NCBI GenBank assembly: GCA_951813565.1 | Contig: OX638351.1 | Location: 4,896,001 to 4,960,000 of the forward strand | Direction of reading: 5' to 3' | Length of the DNA stretch: 64,000 nt | From: an uncultured Poribacteria bacterium | Lineage (GTDB): Bacteria; Poribacteria; WGA-4E; WGA-3G | In this document: positions 5,418 to 50,603 of the stretch, piece by piece | Position numbering within the stretch: the first letter of the stretch is position 1 | Layout: each line of letters begins with the position of its first letter | Notes under the pieces: generated by a model | What the model saw: only the letters and a program-made list of their open reading frames with translations | What the model was told of the DNA's origin: nothing | Databases searched by the model: none | Made by a program: the position numbers and the translations under genes

Positions 5418-5560
5418 GTCATAGGTACCCACTACCTAAAGGTAGGGGCTTGTGCTTCCTTGCGACTGCGGTTTTCTCAGAGAGTTGACCGTCTTATTGT
5501 CGCTCCACTTTAGGCAGCCAAGCCTGCCCGTTTGATATTGATAGCAGCGTTGGTGTCTCT
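5418..5560 (-). ncRNA. Predicted TnpB omega/reRNA scaffold; 5' boundary uncertain
   Basis: Inferred from established TnpB biology (the RNA spans the tnpB 3' end to the right end); the right-end hairpin is visible. Not folded computationally. Confidence 0.5.
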
Positions 5561-6622
5561 GTCGTGGTGTGACCCACATTCGGGACATGTCCACTGCCTA
5601 TCAGAAAGAGAGAGTTCTTTGTTATGGTATCCACAATCACTACAAGGTTTTGTTGTTGCTATCCATTGAGAGATTCGCACAAGTTTTTTGCCGTGCTTCG
5701 CACACTTCTGTTCCAATATCTGAAGAAACTGGTAGAAAGAATGGTCAGAAACTTTACGTCCCCATAATCGTTTCATACCGTCAAGGTTCAGCGTTTCCAA
5801 AATGAGTGTGTCAAACTCTACACAAAGTTTTGAGGCAAGTTTCCATTGCCAATCTTCTCTTTGTCGTGCCACTTTTCTGTGTTGCCTTGCTAAAGCACGG
5901 CACGCACGATAATAGTTGTTAGAACCTTTGACTTTACGACTGAGTGCTTTGTTGAGAGATCGCAACGTGTTGAGTGATTGTTTGAAAAACTGCGGGGATT
6001 CTATTGTGTCCCCTTCGTCGCTTGTTAGGAATGTTTTGTTTCCGTAATCAAATCCTGCGCTCTTACCTGTCTTGGGTTTGGGTTCGGGATCGTCAACATT
6101 CTCGCACGAAAAGCATATCCAATAGTCACCGCACCTGTCACGTTTGATGGTGATCGTCTTGATGACACCTTTGATTTCACGGTGTTTGTGAAACGAAAAC
6201 CATGTATCTATACAGTTGATTTTGATACGATTATCTTCAAGTTTGTAGCCCGCTTGTGTGAAGGTCATGGAGTTGTATTTGTGTCTCGGTTTGATTTTCG
6301 GTCTACCCACTTTACGCGTTGTTTTACCTGATTTGCGGCTTGCTATATTTTGGAAAAATGCGTCTTGTGATTTACCATAACGTAGGACAACGTCTTGCAC
6401 AACTTGACTCGGCAAGGCTGCCCAATGCGGTTTAGTTGTCTTTTTAAGTTTTGTGACGTGTGCCTTCAGACGATACGCAGACAAATTTTTGCCGAACATG
6501 CGATAATACCTACGTGCCAAACGCATGATATGCACATGGATTTCCCACATATCATCAAGCATATTACCAAGTTTGATTGTGTTAGATTGGTGTTGAAGTT
6601 TGAACTTGTGAGATTTTCTCAT
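5510..6622 (-). CDS. tnpB: RNA-guided endonuclease TnpB
   Basis: 370 aa; RuvC-I GFDYG, RuvC-II ILETLN, zinc finger CSDC/CPEC, RuvC-III DRDTNAAINI. Confidence 0.95.
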   Translation of the reverse strand: MRKSHKFKLQHQSNTIKLGNMLDDMWEIHVHIMRLARRYYRMFGKNLSAYRLKAHVTKLKKTTKPHWAALPSQVVQDVVLRYGKSQDAFFQNIASRKSGKTTRKVGRPKIKPRHKYNSMTFTQAGYKLEDNRIKINCIDTWFSFHKHREIKGVIKTITIKRDRCGDYWICFSCENVDDPEPKPKTGKSAGFDYGNKTFLTSDEGDTIESPQFFKQSLNTLRSLNKALSRKVKGSNNYYRACRALARQHRKVARQREDWQWKLASKLCVEFDTLILETLNLDGMKRLWGRKVSDHSFYQFLQILEQKCAKHGKKLVRISQWIATTKPCSDCGYHNKELSLSDRQWTCPECGSHHDRDTNAAINIKRAGLAA

Positions 6623-7820: not shown

Positions 7821-7959
7821 TACCATTTCTATAAAATAACATACCTTTTGCTGATTCGTAGTCGCGCAATTTATTGCCAAATCAACGCAGCATGCGCTTG
7901 TGGCATGCTGCGCCTCGGACATTCTAATTCGAAAGGGAAATTCATTTATAGAATTGGTA
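7821..7959. mobile_element. MITE, TACCA-end family, TTA target duplication
   Basis: TTA|TACCATTTCTATAAAAT...ATTTATAGAATTGGTA|TTA; contains a REP-like unit carrying a 34-bp hairpin insert. Confidence 0.7.
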
Positions 7960-8194
7960 TTACTCTCATAACCGCACTCTGTAGCACAAACTGTATGAAG
8001 ATTAACTTATTCTTTCGGTAATTTTCTGTCCGCACGAGGCAGGTGTACCCACCTGCTGGCGAGGTTTCCTAACCTCGCTAAATTACCGATTTATTTTTTT
8101 AAACTTCATTTAGTTTGTGTCGTATTTGCGCAAACTGAAAGTTTACGCTACAGTAGTGTAAAGATAATTACAGGTTTTACTATAAATAACCTAA

Positions 8195-8528
8195 TACCAC
8201 ATTAACTTGATTCATATTTATGGAGCAGTTAGGAAAACGTACCTTATGCGTCAATTTAAGGATATACCCTCTTGTGGGAGGGGTTTTCAACCCCGATTTT
8301 CTTCTGTAGGAGCGACCTCCCGGTCGCGAGCTGGAGCTCGTTCCTACAGAATGTCCGAGGCGACAAGTCATGGCGAATACCACGCGTATTCGCCCAAGTG
8401 CGCTTGGCGTTGATTTGGCAATGAATTGCACGACTACAAACGCTTTTTTTCTTAAATTGACAGTTATGGAGCGGTTAGGAAACCGCACCTACCGTCCGGA
8501 AAATGCGATAAATCCCGTTAATTTGGTA
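8195..8528. mobile_element. MITE, TACCA-end family, TAA target duplication; near-identical copy at 35421-35857
   Basis: TAA|TACCACATTAAC...GTTAATTTGGTA|TAA. Confidence 0.8.
8243..8468. mobile_element. MITE, CATAGGTGTCAATTTA family, 20-bp target duplication
   Basis: TIRs ..GTCAATTTAAG / CTTAAATTGAC..; flanks GAGCAGTTAGGAAAACGTAC and GAGCGGTTAGGAAACCGCAC. Confidence 0.75.
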
Positions 8529-8700
8529 TAAGTTGCTACGGACAAGATTTCAAGCTTGCAGACATTGCTTTTTACTGAAAAACAAGGATTTCCAGCTAAT
8601 TCTTATGCTTTCTTTTCTAAATCGGGGTTAGAAACCCCTCCTACAAGAGCATTCGCGATATAGGTAGCAACTTGGGTTATAAATACACAGCATCAACACA

Positions 8701-16185: not shown

Positions 16186-16470
16186 TGTGCCAGTTAAGTG
16201 AAAGTTTTGCTGTATTTCACAATTGTTCATGTTTTGGAATCAACGCCAAATACGCTTTTGGCATTTGGCGGGTTTGTAACCCCGATATTGTGAACCTAAA
16301 CTAATTAAATCGGAGTTACAAACCCGCAGCATGTCACACGCGCATGCTGCGTTGATTCACTCCTACAAGAAAATCTATCCTTAAATTGACGCCTATAGGT
16401 AGAGCTTGCGAAACCCAACATACAAGATAACTACAAGAGTGCCTCGCGACAATTGAATAGTTCTGGCACA
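16186..16470. repeat. Cluster of REP-like hairpins, two 34-bp hairpin inserts and MITE ends
   Basis: Inserts at 16236-16269 and 16326-16359; a TTAAATTGACGCCTAT end near 16381 and an AATTGAATAGTTCTG end near 16451. Confidence 0.7.
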
Positions 16471-23148: not shown

Positions 23149-24811
<1,663 letters not shown>

Positions 24812-24840
24812 TTTCTTTCTCCCACTAACTCATAATATTG

Positions 24841-25254
24841 TTAATATGCCTCGTCAATCCACTCGTTATCATGGTCGGGGTTATAGATCAACCCCTTCCT
24901 GATATCAACACAGAGGTCTAATTGTTCTAAAACCATGTGTCCGACAAGCACAGGTAAGCCCGCCGGCAAGTCAGTTATCGGTAGTGTGCCTTCTCGTTCC
25001 AATAATGTAAATCGGACTTCTGAATAGATGGTCCGATCCACGATGCCGTTTGACGTTCTCGCCTTTGCTTTGCTTAAGGGTGTTAAACCGAGTTGTTCAA
25101 TGATCGGTTGCGGTAAAGATAACCGCGTGGCACCGGTATCAACGAGGGCATCTTCAACAGTAACACGGCGAACCGCTTCGGGAGTGATAACACCTCTGTT
25201 TGATAAATTGAGGTCTGACAGATTTGCAAGTTCAATTCTTGTTGTGTGTCTCAT
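24841..25254 (-). CDS. Clan AA (retropepsin-like) aspartic protease, copy 2
   Basis: Identical to copy 1 except at residues ~8-19; 443-bp period. Confidence 0.88.
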   Translation of the reverse strand: MRHTTRIELANLSDLNLSNRGVITPEAVRRVTVEDALVDTGATRLSLPQPIIEQLGLTPLSKAKARTSNGIVDRTIYSEVRFTLLEREGTLPITDLPAGLPVLVGHMVLEQLDLCVDIRKGLIYNPDHDNEWIDEAY

Positions 25255-26535: not shown

Positions 26536-27897
26536 CTAACTTTTTGCTTCTCCTTCAGATACACGACGTTGTCCGCTTCCTTGTTGCGGTGCAGGTTCAA
26601 TTGTTGGTGCTTCTTCACCTGCTTCAACCATCCGCCGAATAAGTCGTTCACGCATTACCTCAGCCACATTTTCATGCGATCGAAGTCCGATAAGATTTCG
26701 TAACTCGTACGGGTCTGCATCAAGATCGTAGAGGTACTGCTCAATGTATGTGTCAGAACCAGCGTCTTTTCCACCACCTTTGTTAGGCGCATCAACCCCA
26801 TATTTCCATCGTTGCGTGCGCACAGCGCGACCCACTTGTGCCTCGCTAATTTGGACGAACACCTCTTCGGGCCAATCGTCTGTTTCACCGCGCAGCAGCG
26901 GCAGAACAGATCGCCCTTGCATCTCATCAGGGACTGCCAAACCTGCTGCATCCAATAGTGTCGGCGGTAGGTCTACAAGACTCACGAGCTCTTGAATTTG
27001 TCCGCCTCCGATAAAACCCGGTCCGTGGAATGCAGTCGGCACTCGGATTGAACTTTCGTGGCACGAACGTTTATATTCGCTATTGCGGGTTTTGAAATGA
27101 CACCCATGGTCAGAGGTAAACAGGATGATGGTATTATCAAGTAAATCAAGACTTTTGAGAGCATCCAATAGTCTACCGAGCGCTTCGTCAAGCCTTTTCA
27201 CCATGCCATAATAACCGCCTAAATGCTGGTGCGTTGACCCGCCCAGCGCGGCGAGATCAGGTGGAATCCACTTGCCTGTATACCTTTCCCTATATCCATC
27301 TGGCGGTGGGTAATCGTCCAGATGGTTTTGGTGATGCGGTTCAATGTATGAAGTAAATAGATAGAAAGGATCATTTTTATGTTGGTCAACGTAACTTATC
27401 ACCGCATCTGTTACAGCATCAACACGATAGCCGGGTAGGTCAACAGGTTGATTGTCGTTATCAAAAAGCCTTGTCTGATATGCATCAGAGGTCATTTCCA
27501 GCACATTAGACGCTAACCAATAGTCATATCCACCGCGGTTCTCAGGCGGAACAGGTCCAGTACTTCCTGAATGGAGGTGCCACTTACCGATGTATCCGGT
27601 AGCATAACCTGCATCACCGAAGTGATGTGCAAGTGTTTTGAGATTGGGTGATAAGGGGATACCGTTTCTGAAACATCCTGTGCGAGTTGCATATAGTCCT
27701 GTTTGTAGGCATGAACGTGCTGGTCCGCAGACAGGTTGGCACGTAAAAGAGCGGTGGACATGTGTGCCCCGCTGTGCCATCCGGTCGAAATTGGGCATCA
27801 AATCGAGCGGGTTGCCGTGCAAGCCTGAGGTGTCCCACCGCTGTTGGTCAGTAAAAAAGACAATGACGTTCGGTTGATTTGCGTCAGTTTGTGGCAT
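26536..27897 (-). CDS. Formylglycine-dependent sulfatase
   Basis: PNVIVFFTDQQR, CGPAR (CxPxR), GKWHL and FTSDHG. Confidence 0.95.
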   Translation of the reverse strand: MPQTDANQPNVIVFFTDQQRWDTSGLHGNPLDLMPNFDRMAQRGTHVHRSFTCQPVCGPARSCLQTGLYATRTGCFRNGIPLSPNLKTLAHHFGDAGYATGYIGKWHLHSGSTGPVPPENRGGYDYWLASNVLEMTSDAYQTRLFDNDNQPVDLPGYRVDAVTDAVISYVDQHKNDPFYLFTSYIEPHHQNHLDDYPPPDGYRERYTGKWIPPDLAALGGSTHQHLGGYYGMVKRLDEALGRLLDALKSLDLLDNTIILFTSDHGCHFKTRNSEYKRSCHESSIRVPTAFHGPGFIGGGQIQELVSLVDLPPTLLDAAGLAVPDEMQGRSVLPLLRGETDDWPEEVFVQISEAQVGRAVRTQRWKYGVDAPNKGGGKDAGSDTYIEQYLYDLDADPYELRNLIGLRSHENVAEVMRERLIRRMVEAGEEAPTIEPAPQQGSGQRRVSEGEAKS

Positions 27898-27978
27898 ATT
27901 TCTGTTTTTCCTCTCTATTCAGGTTTTGAATAATCCATTTTAATGAATTATTTGATTGGTGTCAAGTGGAAATGCATC

Positions 27979-28218
27979 CATAGGTGTCAATTTAGGAAAC
28001 AAATCCCATCAAAATTTGTAGGGCCAAATCAACGCCAAATGCGCTTTTTGGCATTTGGCGGGGTCTCTGTGCCCCGCCATATCTGATGTATCCAAACAAC
28101 GGACGGGCACAGAGAACCGCCCCTACGATGGAGCTGGGATGCACAAAAAAATATCGGGCTTAGAAAGCCCTCCCACAAGAGATAATCTGGCAATTATATT
28201 CTTAAATTGACAGTTATG
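27979..28218. mobile_element. MITE, CATAGGTGTCAATTTA family, perfect 20-bp target duplication
   Basis: GTGTCAAGTGGAAATGCATC occurs at 27959-27978 and 28219-28238. Confidence 0.85.
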
Positions 28219-28338
28219 GTGTCAAGTGGAAATGCATCGATTGAGAGGCGTTTAGTTTTTTCAGTTTCCGTAGCGAATTCACCAAAAGACCGTGAAACCG
28301 AAATGTATCCTGTTATATGATTTTATTAGTGATAAACG

Positions 28339-35289: not shown

Positions 35290-35420
35290 TGAGTGCCTCT
35301 CTTAGTCTTTTGTCATAATCAAGTTACCACATCTGTTTGCCAAAATCAACTGATTTTCGGTTTGACTTGAATTAACTATATATGGTAAAATCGCTTATGT
35401 ATTAAGGGAGTGGGCAGTAA

Positions 35421-35857
35421 CACCACATTAACTTGATTCATATTTATGGAGCAGTTAGGAAAACGCACCTTATGCGTCAATTTAAGGATATACCCTCTTG
35501 TGGGAGCGAATCAACGCAGCATGCGCGTTTGGCATGCTGCCAAATCAACGCCAAATGCGCTTTTTGGCATTTGTCCAAATCAACGCAGCATGCGCGTTTG
35601 GCATGCTGCGGGTTTTCAACCCCGATTTTCTTCTGTAGGAGCGACCTCCCGGTCGCGAGCTGGAGCTCGCTCCTACAGAATGTCCGAGGCGACAAGTCAT
35701 GGCGAATACCACGCGTATTCGCCCAAGTGCGCTTGGCGTTGATTTGGCAATGAATTGCACGACTACAAACGCTTTTTTTCTTAAATTGACAGTTATGGAG
35801 CGGTTAGGAAACCGCACCTACCGTCCGGAAAATGCGATAAATCCCGTTAATTTGGTA
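35421..35857. mobile_element. Composite MITE: copy of 8195-8528 plus 103 bp of three tandem hairpin units
   Basis: TAA target duplication; inner long-TSD MITE at 35469-35797; units at 35507-35609. Confidence 0.85.
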
Positions 35858-35917
35858 TAAGTAGCACATTTATTGACTCAAGATATTCTACAGAGAACCC
35901 TGTGAAGGCGGTGAAAT

Positions 35918-37063
35918 ATGAAAGAGAAACCAAAAGAAAAGCTCAATCAGACACTAGAACCTCCTGTAGATGAGGAGACAAACGGTTCAGATAAAAACCC
36001 AGAAACTGAACCTCCTATTGACACCTCAATTCAACACCAATTCAATGAACTAAAGCGCGATTATCTGAACGACCGTTCCAATTCAATTAATCGGTTGTTA
36101 GTCTTTATCTGCATAGTGCTTGTCTTTTTTACGATTGCAATTCCGATTGTAACAGGTATTGCCGCGTATTTAGTCTATGAAAAGTTTGAGAGCATACAAT
36201 CTCAAATGCTAATACATGTGAATGAAGCGAGCAAACAGGCTACCGAGGCAGAAAAACATGCTAACCAAGCTGCGCAATATCTAAAGGAAATAAAGGAGCA
36301 CCAAACCGAACTGAAAGTTATTATATCCAAGTTAACGAGTAAAGATTTCAGCAATCCGAATAAGGTTGAAATTTTCAAGACAACTATTGAAGGTATTCAA
36401 AAAAATCCTGACCTATCCCTTGAAGACAAGGCTATCATTGAGGCTTACAGACTGCAGAATGCTGGCGAAATTCCAGAAGCAATTGAGAAATGGAGATCTA
36501 TCGCTAATACTGCTAAAGGTTTCAATGACGATCTTGTCGCCCGTGCATTCTTCTCAATTGGCTACCTCCATTCTGAGCAAAATGAAAATGATCAGGCACT
36601 TTCTGCTTTCGACCAAGCAATTGAACTGATGCCAGATTTTGCTGATGCGTACACCGGTCGCGGTATTGTAAAAAGTGCACTTGGAAACGCTGAGGAAGCT
36701 ATTGCTGATCACGACGAAGCGATACGTTTGAAACCCGATTTTGCTGAGGCGTACATCAATCGCGGCACAGCGAAGCGCGCACTCAAAAAATATGAGGAAG
36801 CGATCGCTGACTTTGACGAAGCGATCCATCTTAATCCGAATTCTGCTTCTGCCTACACGCATCGTGGCGTGTCAAAGAATGCACTCGGTAAATCTCAGGA
36901 GGCGATTGCTGACCATGACGAGGCTATCCGTCTCAATCCGAATTTCGTTGAGGCATATATCAATCGCGGTGCAGCAAAGCGAGAATTGGGGCAGATGAGC
37001 GAAGCAGAGAAGGATATGCAAAAGGCATTGCAACTCGCGCAGGAGCAGGAGGAGAAGCCTTAA
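35918..37063 (+). CDS. Membrane-anchored coiled-coil plus TPR protein
   Basis: TM segment followed by 34-aa repeats (AEAYINRG..K..L..YEEAIADFDEAI.LNP). Confidence 0.9.
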   Translation: MKEKPKEKLNQTLEPPVDEETNGSDKNPETEPPIDTSIQHQFNELKRDYLNDRSNSINRLLVFICIVLVFFTIAIPIVTGIAAYLVYEKFESIQSQMLIHVNEASKQATEAEKHANQAAQYLKEIKEHQTELKVIISKLTSKDFSNPNKVEIFKTTIEGIQKNPDLSLEDKAIIEAYRLQNAGEIPEAIEKWRSIANTAKGFNDDLVARAFFSIGYLHSEQNENDQALSAFDQAIELMPDFADAYTGRGIVKSALGNAEEAIADHDEAIRLKPDFAEAYINRGTAKRALKKYEEAIADFDEAIHLNPNSASAYTHRGVSKNALGKSQEAIADHDEAIRLNPNFVEAYINRGAAKRELGQMSEAEKDMQKALQLAQEQEEKP

Positions 37064-37092
37064 CATAATCTGCAGATTGAAATCTCTTTTTC

Positions 37093-37121
37093 TTGAAATC
37101 TTTCACAAATTGATGTATAAT
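37093..37121 (+). promoter_or_regulatory. Sigma70-type promoter for the higB cassette
   Basis: TTGAAA-17 bp-TATAAT. Confidence 0.55.
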
Positions 37122-37270
37122 TTTCGCGGTAATTAACACGATGGTAAGTGGAGGTTTATTTTTGCGTGTGATAACGTTCTTCCTATCAGAACATCTAAGT
37201 TCGCTTGTGTTATCAGCATTTGATAACAATCGTTTACACTCGCAATTCGCATTTTTGAGATAGGTTGACA

Positions 37271-37612
37271 ATGCAGATTATTTTTGAACATAAACTTACT
37301 GAATTTGCAGAACGACATTCAACCTCCAGACCGGGACTTCTCCGTTGGATCAACTTGATACAACAAAAAAATTTCAGTTCGGTAACTGCATTGCGGGAAA
37401 CTTTTCCTCACGCGGACCTCGTAAAAAAAGAAACACATGTTCAACTAAGACATCAGGTTCCTTACAGCAACCGAGAAACAACGTTTACAGTTTTCAACAT
37501 TGGCGGTAACAAAGCGCGACTTATTACAATTATGCGATATAAGTCTCGGCAAGTTGTCATTCATGAAGTGCTGACACACGCCGAGTACGATGCATGGAAC
37601 AAGAAGAGGTAA
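37271..37612 (+). CDS. higB: HigB family toxin (mRNA interferase)
   Basis: LRETFPHADLV..TVFNIGGNKARLI..VLTHAEYD signature. Confidence 0.88.
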   Translation: MQIIFEHKLTEFAERHSTSRPGLLRWINLIQQKNFSSVTALRETFPHADLVKKETHVQLRHQVPYSNRETTFTVFNIGGNKARLITIMRYKSRQVVIHEVLTHAEYDAWNKKR

Positions 37613-37618
37613 CGAACA

Positions 37619-38710
37619 ATGTCAACTGGAATGCCAATTCCGAAAGATATATTGTCAACATTTACGCCTTTTGGACCATCAGTTTTAGATGCAGACGTCT
37701 TGTCAGATCAGGTGTTACATGCGTCAATACAACCTATTACCAAGAAATTTGTGCATGTTACGCCTTATCCGGAAAGTGCTGTTAAGTGGCTCATAAGTTT
37801 ATTAGACCTATTCGCTGGTATCGTGAATCGGAACGAAGACCTTAGTCGTATTGTAATAACGGAAACCGAGTACCAACAACTTTCAGAATTCTTAGACGAT
37901 TTAATCTATAGTGCCGGTGAAGACGAAAATCACCCCTTGTCGGCAACAATGACAATGGTCGGTATCCTTATTAAGATGTATGAGGATCAACATTTTCCAA
38001 AGTTAGATACACTCTTTCCTGAACTTGCAGAAGGTGCATCCGATGAAGCTGTTAGCAACAATAGGGATGCGACTACTACCATATCAGGACAGATTGACAC
38101 AGATTTTGTCATTGTACTCTTTTCGATTGGTTGTCTTCTTTGGACGGGCGGCAAGTTCAAAAAAGCTATTTCTGCCTATGACTTGGCAATTAGTATAAAT
38201 CCTGATTATGCCAGTATCCACACAAGTCGGGGTGAAGCAAAGTCCAGTCTAAATAACTTTACGGGCGCAAAGGAAGACCTCCAGAGTGCATTGAAACTCA
38301 CGGAAAAACAAGGAGAAGATAACTTCAGCACTGCCATTAAGGAACGACTTGAGGAACTTGATGTGGTAGAGGCTGCTGTTGCCTATCTTTCAGCATCCAA
38401 ATTCTCGAAATTTTCCATTCTTAGAGAGTGTAAAATCCAGATGGGAACAATCCATAGCAGAGCCGATATTGTGCTTTGCGATGCAGAAGGAAATTTTATA
38501 GCTATCGTAGAGTGCAAATTGCTTGCAGGTTCCGGACATGGTGAATATAATCACGAGCCACTAAAGAGTTATCTCTGTGCAACCGACACGCTATTCGGTA
38601 TATTTGCTTCTAACATAAATCCAGATTCATGGATTTTCTATGAAAATTTGCGTCACAATCGATTTCGGCAAATTAAGCGTTCTGATTTTGAGAAGCGGGT
38701 TCTTAAGTAA
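37619..38710 (+). CDS. Fusion of a HigA-like N-terminal domain, TPR and an HsdR-N-like PD-(D/E)XK domain
   Basis: TETEYQQLSEFLDDL..GEDENHPL..LIKMYEDQHFP; AISAYDLAISINPDYA; RADIVL..IVECK. Confidence 0.7.
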   Translation: MSTGMPIPKDILSTFTPFGPSVLDADVLSDQVLHASIQPITKKFVHVTPYPESAVKWLISLLDLFAGIVNRNEDLSRIVITETEYQQLSEFLDDLIYSAGEDENHPLSATMTMVGILIKMYEDQHFPKLDTLFPELAEGASDEAVSNNRDATTTISGQIDTDFVIVLFSIGCLLWTGGKFKKAISAYDLAISINPDYASIHTSRGEAKSSLNNFTGAKEDLQSALKLTEKQGEDNFSTAIKERLEELDVVEAAVAYLSASKFSKFSILRECKIQMGTIHSRADIVLCDAEGNFIAIVECKLLAGSGHGEYNHEPLKSYLCATDTLFGIFASNINPDSWIFYENLRHNRFRQIKRSDFEKRVLK

Positions 38711-38898
38711 GCGAATAATCTGATGCTTATATCAATCGCGGTGCAGCAAAGCGAGAATTGGGGCAGATGAGCGAAGCAGAGAAGGATATGCAAAAGGCAT
38801 TGCAACTTGCGCAGGAGCAGGAGGAGAAGCCTAAGGTTGATGGTGAGTAAAGGTTTTGATGGGAAGGTTATCCCTGTGCAGTGAAAAGGGGGTAAAAA

Positions 38899-40268
38899 AT
38901 GGATAAAAAACAATCGACTGAACTTGAACAACAAGAAATGATGTCGGAACATTCAGTGGAATCTGAGCAATCAGAAGATGCTTCTGATAACACGACTGGT
39001 GAAAATGTTTCCACTGATAAACGCAAAATTCTTGAACGTATTTGGACATTTAGTCTTCAGCATAAACTTTTTGCCGCTGTAACGTGTGTAGGTGTGCTTC
39101 TTGGTGGTATCGGTACATTTCTTCTCGGTATTGATGCAATTCGCCCTGATAGCTCAAATTTGAGTTTAAAGGGTGAAGAAATAGTAAAGTTCATTCAAGC
39201 TGTAAAATCCGATGAAATGGCACAAGTTGAAGAATCTCTGCAGAAGGTTGAGGAAAATAAAAGGCTTCTATTTTGGACAAGGCGGTGGTAGAAGCCTACA
39301 GATTGAAACAGGATGGGAAAATTGATGATTCCATCGAAAAATGGCGTTCTATTGCAAACATAGCTGAAGGAAATAATAACGATCTTGCCTCTGGTGCGTG
39401 GTTCTCGATTGGTTATCTCCATTCGCAGGAAGGTGAACGAAAAGAGGCTATTTCTGCATACAACGAAGCGATACGGCTAAAACCAGATTTTGCAAAAGCA
39501 TTTACTAATCGGGGTGCTGTAAAGCAAGAACTTGGTAGATATGAAGAGGCGATTGTTGACTATAATGAAGCAATACGGCTAAAACCAGATTATGCAAGAG
39601 CATACTACAATCGGGGTGTTTTTAAGTATGAACTTGGTAGATATGAAGAGGCGATTGTTGACTTCAATGAAGCAATACGGCTAAAACCTGATGATGCAGA
39701 AGCATACTACAATCGAGGTTTTGTTAAGTATAAACTTGGTAGATATGAAGAGGCGATTGTTGACTATAATGAAGCAATACGGCTAAAACCAGATTTGGCA
39801 AAAGCATATTACGATCGGGGTATTGTTAAGAAAGTACTTGGTAGATATGAAGAGGCGATTGTTGACTATAATGAAGCAATACGGCTAAAACCAGATGATG
39901 CAGAAGCATACTACAATCGAGGTTTTGTTAAGTATGCACTTGGTAAATCTGAAGAGGCGATTGTTGACTATAATGAAGCAATACGGCTAAAACCTGATTG
40001 GGCAGAAGCCTATATTATTCGCGGTAATGTAAAGGGTGAACTTGGTAGATATGAAGAGGCGATAGTTGACTGCAATGAAGCAATACGGCTAAAACCAGAT
40101 TTGGCAGAAACCTATATTATTCGCGGTGCTGCGAAAAGGATACTTGGCAATCATGAGGAAGCTAAAAGGGATTTCCAGTTCGCTTTGAAACTTGCTGAAC
40201 AGCAAGGAAACGATAACCTAAAAACTATTACAGAGAAGATGATTCAAGAACTTAAAGACAAAGAATAG
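38899..40268 (+). pseudogene. TM plus TPR-array protein, split by a one-base frameshift near 39260
   Basis: ORFs 38899-39291 and 39273-40268 overlap; adding one base gives EENKKASILDKAVVEAYRL, matching the paralog QKNPDLSLEDKAIIEAYRL. Confidence 0.75.
39531..40142 (+). repeat. Six tandem 102-bp TPR-coding units
   Basis: CTTGGTAGATATGAAGAGGCGATTGTTGACTATAATGAAGCAATACGGCTAAAACC recurs with few changes every 102 bp. Confidence 0.9.
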
Positions 40269-40782: not shown

Positions 40783-40858
40783 GTAGGGCGGGGTCCTTGT
40801 GCCCCGCCAATATTTGGAACATGCCAAGCAATGTGCGGGCACAAGGACCCGCACCTAC
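40783..40858. repeat. Inverted GTAG REP-like doublet (REPIN-like)
   Basis: GTAGGGCGGGGTCCTTGTGCCCCGCC ... GCGGGCACAAGGACCCGCACCTAC; similar doublets at 28018-28126 and 44302-44373. Confidence 0.75.
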
Positions 40859-48784: not shown

Positions 48785-48985
48785 CATAGGCGTCAATTTA
48801 GTGCCTGATTTTCTTGTGGGAGGGCTTTCTAAGCCCGATATTGTGAGACTCAAACCGTTATATCGGGGTTGAAAACCCGCCAAATGCCAAAAAGCGCATT
48901 TGGCGTTGATTTGGCAGCATGCCACACGCGCATGCTGCGTTGATTCACTCCCACAAGAGGATATATCCTAAAATTGACACCTATG
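48785..48985. mobile_element. MITE, CATAGGTGTCAATTTA family, 19-bp target duplication
   Basis: GGTTTCACGTTGTTCTACC occurs at 48766-48784 and 48986-49004, inside a REP-like hairpin. Confidence 0.85.
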
Positions 48986-50350: not shown

Positions 50351-50603
50351 CATAGGTGTAAACTTAAGAAAAAAATGCTGGATTTTTTCTTGTGGGAGGG
50401 CTTTCTAAGCCCGATAGAATACTCGGACATTGTGGGAGGGAGACCTTGTCCGCCCGATTGAACGAGATTCAAGCAGAAAATCCAAATCAACGCAGCATGC
50501 GCGTATGGCATGCTGCGGGGTTGAAAACCCGCCAAATGCCAAAAAGCGCATTTGACGTTGATTCACTCCCACAAGAGGATATATCCTTAAATTGACACCT
50601 ATG
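50351..50603. mobile_element. MITE, CATAGGTGTCAATTTA family, 19-bp target duplication
   Basis: GGGTGTCGCAAGCTCTACC occurs at 50332-50350 and 50604-50622. Confidence 0.85.

Follow-up and report, generated by a model that had tools for sequence, protein, structure and literature searches.

A 34–36-base hairpin unit inserted in REP-type repeats of Poribacteria and its possible copying into RAYT nicks

The unit and its copies in the window

The window, i.e. the whole stretch of 64,000 nucleotides of DNA analysed here, from a Poribacteria bacterium that is likely sponge-associated, belongs to a genome (G000) that consists of one contig of 5.43 Mb. Around position 35507 it harbors an array of three short hairpin units embedded in a mosaic of other repeats (Table 1). 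In the unit, two variable bases precede a 7-base leader, which is followed by a 9-bp stem with a loop of 7–8 bases; the whole amounts to 34–36 bases. The hairpin of unit 1 has a computed energy of -10.5 kcal/mol with DNA parameters, and the G at 35610 lengthens the stem of unit 3 and may itself be part of the unit.

The initial annotation listed 11 canonical units, each of 34 or 35 bases, and two variants of 56 bases; every one of them was located at its coordinates and on its strand. With its GG start, the unit at 16236 departs from the (C/T)(A/G) consensus given there. A 16-mer of leader plus stem has nine matches in the window with at most three mismatches, compared with 0.62 expected and a maximum of three after shuffling.

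Table 1. Repeat units, carriers and a candidate nuclease gene. Positions are those of the window, except for the RAYT gene, which is given as located in G000.
Feature	Position	Strand	Remarks
Composite carrier holding the 35507 array	35418..35871	.	MITE/REPIN-like mosaic of REPs; ends approximate, ~450 bases
Unit 1 of the 35507 array	35507..35540	+	34 nt; leader 35509-35515; 9-bp stem; 7-base loop
Unit 2 of the 35507 array	35541..35575	+	35 nt; second stem subtype; C.T mismatch at stem position 2
Unit 3 of the 35507 array	35576..35609	+	34 nt
Nested variant, second hairpin inside unit	35691..35746	-	56 nt; in the same carrier as the 35507 array
Paralogous carrier copy without array	8192..8536	.	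341/345 bases identical
Nested variant	8362..8417	-	56 nt, identical to 35691..35746; in the paralogous carrier
MITE-like carrier of the 28025 unit	27979..28216	.	238 bases
Single unit	28025..28059	+	C|G step of GTAG-tagged REP
Single unit	7878..7911	+	C|G step, 3' arm of GTAG-tagged palindrome
Single unit	16236..16269	+	starts GG, behind T-run
Single unit	16326..16359	-	starts TG, GTAG tag seven bases ahead
Two-unit array	48879..48947	-	35 + 34 nt
Single unit	50483..50516	+	REP hairpin, far foot
Single unit	50531..50565	-	same REP as 50483 unit, opposite orientation
RAYT gene in G000	242008-242493		one of the candidate nicking nucleases; another RAYT gene lies at 5070803-5071252 of G000

Stem position 3 occurs in three Watson-Crick forms (C-G, A-T and T-A) and positions 1, 4, 5 and 8 in two each. 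Among 62 stem variants, which are mutually related, 83% of the cells are paired, compared with 72% (largest value 75%) when the arms are shuffled. The covariation of the stem is real, and the compensatory changes noted initially are borne out, but the subtypes number more than the two proposed. Folding of the leader strand is slightly favoured by computed energies, while the mismatch types lean to the other strand: on the leader strand A.C exceeds G.T by 73 to 25 when copies are counted and by 16 to 10 when distinct events are counted (p = 0.33).

Copy number and distribution

The genome search for leader plus hairpin that had been suggested with the initial annotation returns more than 500 copies in G000. 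By a strict rule there are 402 hairpin units in 313 arrays, namely 258 single units, 39 doubles, nine triples, four arrays of 5 units and single arrays of 4, 6 and 9 units. When a second subfamily with a bulged stem is included, 422 + 141 units in 473 arrays are obtained (about 560 simple units), and 985 leaders are followed by the recurrent start if nested and interrupted forms are counted as well, about 30 of these belonging to two unrelated repeats. The arrays lie outside crudely called ORFs in 427 of the 473 cases, and most of the other 46 are found in short doubtful ORFs; with these 473 arrays the unit is a 20–40-base extragenic palindrome in high copy. Multi-unit arrays run head to tail, reach nine units and are either homogeneous or alternating. 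Both orientations are present in all 14 genome bins, the GC skew being too irregular for placing origin or terminus.

The array sequence matches all 31 genomes of the genus and 21 of 45 genomes of the sister genus, where the same build was seen in the 20 matches inspected, and gives no match in five genomes from three further genera of the same family or in 39 genomes of other families. A search with the exact 26-base hairpin through one genome each of 185,579 species yielded 18 matches, all of them Ca. Poribacteria records. Two 26-mers have no match among viral contigs, and no RNA run is found among the public runs listed as containing the unit.

Two special arrangements were noticed. At L011, L098 and L125 two opposed units share the hairpin at which they are fused, so that the resulting palindrome is bordered by a leader at either end; twelve right-hand flanks of such fused doubles occur in G000. 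In 33 G000 arrays of the second subfamily a short near-copy of the leader precedes the leader, once twice over, for which slippage and repeated priming are proposed as alternatives.

Carriers, empty sites and assembly support

Among the comparisons listed, G006 and G052 lack the composite carrier of the 35507 array at the orthologous site. The MITE-like carrier of the 28025 unit is bounded by 22-base direct repeats (27957-27978 and 28217-28238) and is not present at the corresponding site of G052, G048 or G002; in G012 and G006 other REP insertions are found at this orthologous site. The segment 27957-28238 also displays short terminal inverted repeats, its 22-base target direct repeat is unusually long, and the orthologous site of G052 contains one copy of the 22-base target sequence.

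Three places in the window had been interpreted as empty sites. For 8271-8290 this reading is correct insofar as 8192-8536 corresponds to 35418-35865 minus the 103-base array (341/345 bases), but the site is a paralogue and not an orthologous pre-insertion site. At 40783 and 13725, assigned to the units at 28025 and 7878, respectively, the flanks do match, but the match comprises REP arms only. The empty sites of the window are paralogous copies of larger mobile carriers, and the copy number therefore overstates the number of events. Most unit copies are accounted for by carriers; much of the copy number of the unit is passive, multiplied by the carriers.

Syntenic comparisons, drawn from 400 kb of G006 and another 400 kb of G052, number 35 (15 + 2 + 10 + 8); none of those listed shows an identical host that lacks just the bare unit (0/35), because whole carriers differ. 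Precursor alleles were therefore deduced from paralogues. One unit site is shared in these comparisons, and in G000 it adjoins a RAYT gene.

Public contigs from three of four runs (X3, X8 and X9) show no difference from position 27000 into the 28025 unit, as far as 28045. In one divergent contig 28024-28076 is skipped at a joint, which probably represents a paralogue. The 35507 array is spanned by none of the listed public contigs and is thus neither confirmed nor refuted by reads; three other arrays of G000 match 35505-35612 at 99–100%.

Insertion junctions

Leaving aside 15 of the 478 arrays on account of rare stems, 71 junction contexts are obtained from the other 463. On its right the unit is followed by G in 59 of the 71 and by GG in 41, and six further contexts run on into another leader. 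The left end is coupled to the host: a CA start is found after an upstream C in 26/33 contexts as opposed to 3/38 otherwise (p = 8e-10), an NG start after an upstream G in 16/19 contexts as opposed to 13/52 otherwise. CA also opens every one of the 111 tandem junctions counted. The ends of the unit are consequently not fixed; its first two bases vary with the upstream host base, which fits joining by microhomology and not the fixed ends of an HUH reaction.

Stricter clustering of the junctions gives 97 clusters, 67 of them without a unit-free allele and 30 testable. Thirteen of the testable clusters have an allele with no loss of host bases, whereas the other 17 have host-loss alleles only, a few of these being merely diverged paralogues. 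The precise insertion stated in the initial annotation can accordingly not be upheld as a general rule. Losses of 1–5 host bases are found at many sites. In 12 of the 17 host-loss clusters, as read from the cluster table, A is the last base lost and the host sequence resumes with G right after it, in six motif types; a lost A before G corresponds to C|T when the strand opposite the leader is read, and the REP tag is where many such junctions lie. Single contexts have no exact allele among 110, 98 and 35 unit-free sites. In the 98-site context loss of host bases is not required, but the unit boundaries then shift and the unit adds its own G. As an alternative to the precursors deduced from paralogues, a rare G-bearing allele may exist that is always filled.

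Other claims made for the junctions have proved sound. The target is not duplicated, there being at most short overlaps, usually one shared C, and entry into REP-like repeats with formation of tandem arrays extends to about 70 kinds of site as well as to the unit itself, the arrays running head to tail. Many units in G000, in G006 and in the sister genus lie inside the tag, with different stem subtypes. Insertion 5' of a G, as seen in the right-hand base (59/71), is partly an effect of the unit's own terminal G, which in several contexts stands where the host has A. Across contexts there is no conserved 4-base target, only weak preferences over 1–3 bases.

In the simplest description the unit carries a terminal G that also pairs with the last leader base, the left end would be joined by 1–2 bases of microhomology, and clean insertions are those cases in which the target offers a C|G step. 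Insertion leaves C|G once more at the end of the filled site, which lets arrays grow on the right. Due to the G-runs, the exact position and strand of the cut are ambiguous.

The unit is thus described as a real 34–36-base selfish DNA at about 70 distinct sites in REP-type repeats and in itself. It has entered different repeats repeatedly and independently; its independent mobility is concluded from the 71 junction contexts and from the different stem subtypes found at like sites in different species.

Candidate enzymes

Ten Y1 matches are found in G000: five are IS605-type, four of them adjoining a TnpB-like frame, two are IS200-like and three RAYT-like. One of the RAYT-like matches is interrupted by a stop; both intact RAYTs pass NCBIfam NF047646. 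Within the genus, Y1 genes are present in 36 of 40 genomes and close RAYT homologues in 20 of 40. Next to the RAYT genes of the genus lie GTAG-, GTGG- and GTTG-tagged REPs, which are the REPs invaded by the unit. Natural tag variants are seen at L159 and L161, where the REP flanks of RAYT genes are GTGG- and GTTG-tagged.

A Y1 or RAYT gene flanked by units, for which the initial annotation suggested looking, does not occur in G000 in the fashion of a REPtron, the RAYT genes being flanked by host REPs. The unit is the element next to a RAYT gene, on one side, in two of the 20 loci shown (L152 and L168), and a diverged unit adjoins the gene on one side at L008. At L006 and L007, IS200-like Y1 genes without TnpB are flanked by a separate genome-wide hairpin family and may constitute a second REPtron-like system.

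Genomes that possess this RAYT clade have more copies of the unit by strict counts (p = 0.04 for 14 versus 11 genomes, kinship being ignored) and by a broader copy count (p = 2e-4), the query of which included host REP sequence and which likewise ignores kinship. Three genomes are counter-examples to RAYT dependence: G023, assembled as one contig, has 14 strict copies and no Y1 match, G014 has 33 strict copies and no match to the NF047646-type RAYT of G000, and G016 possesses that RAYT and no strict copy.

No dedicated enzyme for the unit was found. The family leaders stand on both sides, within 350 bases, of 35 genes of G000. A cis-acting driver gene among them was rejected, as they look ordinary by N-terminal sequence and none except a Cas1-like gene with putative unit neighbours resembles a nuclease or transposase. 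Resident IS605 elements were dismissed too, their right ends being unlike the unit. IS110 was discarded as well, with no match in G000 and a matching control, while the IS91/Y2 search gave no match and its control was likewise without a match anywhere.

Two reverse transcriptase genes are present in G000, neither of them flanked by units. One belongs to a CRISPR-Cas1 locus (G000:C1:3988991-3996100), adjoining a Cas1-like gene and a CRISPR-like array, and the other is a stand-alone enzyme of 511 aa (G000:C1:811749-813284). RVT_1 frames of similar length are seen in G011, G015, G024, G044 and G055. RVT_1 has no match in G006, G012, G014 and G017, with 138, 47, 33 and 45 strict copies, respectively. 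Reverse transcriptase was rejected as the driver, as copy number is not associated with it (p = 0.8).

For RAYT enzymes, cleavage rules are available from two systems. According to passages of PMC3333891, TnpA-REP of E. coli cleaves C|T, also where C|T falls within the sequence complementary to the GTAG tag; the 3'-OH resulting from the cut has been proposed as a primer for synthesis. TnpA of Marinomonas cuts CT and CA, and also CC once the tag is GTGG, as stated in part of PMC8266576.

Possible modes of insertion

Our tentative first choice, which we regard as quite possible though somewhat short of probable, is that the unit is copied into single-strand nicks predicted from the RAYT nucleases of the host REPs and not moved by clean strand transfer. 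A RAYT acting on a neighbouring REP would nick the strand opposite the leader after C (C|T, C|A or C|C) and leave a C-3'-OH. This end would pair with the G or GG behind a donor hairpin and be extended through hairpin and leader, whereupon the new strand would rejoin the target by 1–2 bases of microhomology, host bases being trimmed back to the matching base. Every insertion would recreate the C|G step at the right end and so allow the array to grow, later followed by slippage or unequal exchange, and REPIN or MITE carriers would multiply the filled alleles. Such copying would explain the fixed G, the coupled left end and the small losses, as well as the preference for the neighbourhood of REPs and the polar growth of arrays. 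We infer nicking, priming and mobility alike from the junctions. Clean C|G sites followed by a base other than G are common, lie outside the published RAYT rules (C|T, C|A and C|C) and speak against nick-primed copying, which moreover gives no account of why one particular hairpin with its leader has been kept and serves as the favoured donor. A further-reaching version, rather doubtful in our view, has the unit as a 34-base single-stranded replicator that hijacks RAYT nicks, is copied from their 3'-OH and overwrites the guide tag of the REP. Encoding no transposase and recruiting none of its own, the unit would live as a hyperparasite on REP/RAYT.

The absence of target duplication and a conserved leader located 5' of a covarying stem would be expected as well if a Y1 enzyme read a guide at the hairpin foot of the unit, excised a single-strand circle of 34–35 nt and strand-transferred it. 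At clean C|G sites all cuts can indeed be placed after C on the leader strand, the tandem junction resembles a circle junction, and Y1 genes are widespread in the genus (36/40). Transfer by such an own-guide HUH reaction is nevertheless unlikely, as the unit ends are variable and track the host base, host bases are lost in 17 of the 30 testable contexts and a conserved 4-base target is lacking. Furthermore, no gene is bracketed in REPtron style, the 35 unit-flanked genes being ordinary-looking, and a unit adjoins a RAYT gene only at L152 and L168 among the 20 loci shown, apart from the diverged unit at L008. The mismatch types also lean to folding of the other strand, non-significantly when distinct events are counted.

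It appears similarly unlikely that host machinery alone, through template switching and gene conversion at forks stalled by hairpins, has spread the unit with no transposase involved. Neither the choice of one 34-base unit with a fixed leader as donor, kept in two genera, nor the fact that different stem subtypes have repeatedly led to an identical outcome at GTAG tags is explained in this way. The microhomology-like left junctions are compatible with it, as are the fused inverted doubles with one common hairpin and the short leader duplications, the homogeneous and alternating arrays of up to nine units, the dominance of carriers in the copy number, and the copies in G023, a genome without a Y1 match.

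Target-primed reverse transcription yields one fixed and one variable junction. An RNA copy reverse-transcribed into nicked DNA, or an unrecognised leader-binding enzyme, would hence fit the junctions, and two reverse transcriptase genes are at hand in G000. Given that the element-rich genomes G006, G012, G014 and G017 lack an RVT_1 match, that copy number is unassociated with reverse transcriptase (p = 0.8), that one of the two genes sits in a CRISPR-Cas1 locus and neither is flanked by units, and that IS110 has no match in G000, we consider this route unlikely too.

An assembly artefact or chance, which the lack of a listed public contig bridging the 35507 array might suggest, is refuted for the element family by the nine matches in the window against 0.62 expected, by its occurrence in 52 other genomes of the same bacterial family and by independent contigs that enter the 28025 unit without difference. 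Two further readings were dropped, integron attC sites on account of the arms, which are too short, and CRISPR spacers on account of the absent repeat-spacer structure.

Comparison with known elements

As judged by description only, the SDR micro-repeats of Nostoc (small dispersed repeats; Elhai et al. 2008, Genome Res 18:1484) would be the closest known kind. SDRs are reportedly self-nesting hairpins of 21–27 bases that move by no established mechanism. Like them, the unit is inserted in other repeats and in itself. SDR5 inserts between bases 3 and 4 of HIP1 according to part of PMC4390886, and SDRs of Nostocaceae are also cited in passages of PMC5861425 and PMC3116915; like the unit, an SDR is a very small mobile repeat at a fixed step of another short repeat. 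In contrast to the SDRs of Nostocaceae, the unit belongs to a different phylum, measures 34–36 bases, targets RAYT-associated REPs and MITEs and is frequently accompanied by loss of host bases.

With tagged REPs, BIMEs and REPINs the unit shares, as far as described in parts of PMC3333891 and PMC8266576, its size and a hairpin with a conserved 5' flank, and furthermore the intergenic site, the tandem arrays and the absence of target duplication (passages of PMC3116915, PMC3733652 and PMC6006769). Such REPs are the hosts of the unit, and their RAYT genes are present. The unit bears neither a GTAG nor a CGTC tag but a different 7-base leader at the hairpin foot, and it often destroys the tag of its host. 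An inverted doublet as in REPINs is not its unit of replication, 258 of 313 arrays being single and the multiples running head to tail, and unlike in a REPtron it does not flank the RAYT gene on both sides, the 20 RAYT loci being flanked by host REPs.

PATEs are non-autonomous derivatives of IS200/IS605 elements. The unit differs from both in having a single hairpin, a variable end and no fixed target tetranucleotide, and the right ends of the resident IS605 copies do not resemble it. Common to them and the unit are the lack of target duplication and a hairpin near the end, the IS mechanism being described in part of PMC6006769. Compared with a classical MITE the unit is asymmetric and has neither terminal inverted repeats nor target duplication, whereas the 28025 carrier has both. 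The unit is therefore neither a tagged REP nor a REPIN, a PATE or a MITE. In agreement with the initial annotation it matches no recognised family: Rfam gives no match at the gathering score, and no published description was found in searches of the open literature, so that a description in print is possible.

On the spread of REP-sized DNA, published work, in the passages available, comprises RAYT cleavage and strand transfer in vitro and treats insertion by models only. Dozens of independent insertion junctions are preserved in the family of the unit, and they follow a legible rule, consisting of a G fixed on one side and microhomology with small losses on the other, often at the position of a RAYT cut in the tag. 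This rule makes nick-primed copying and strand transfer directly distinguishable in tests with short oligonucleotides and a 162-residue protein. SDR-like micro-elements would also reach beyond the cyanobacteria and, if the proposal of a hyperparasite is true, the unit would be among the smallest mobile DNAs, near the lower size limit, and its mode of mobility one not yet described.

Other features of the window

A tandem duplication with a spacing of 443 bases is found at 24384-25126, identical over the 300 bases compared (100%), which may be either genuine or an assembly error. It holds two ORFs of 137 aa each (24398-24811 and 24841-25254). Repeats of 102 bases (34 codons) extend over 36591-40251 in the ORFs 35918-37063 and 39273-40268, which are likely TPR-type proteins. 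On the minus strand, 5510-6622 is an ORF of 370 aa with a DNA word that is common to the TnpB-like genes of the IS605 loci and likely represents a TnpB-only element; the same word follows the leader 19 times in G000.
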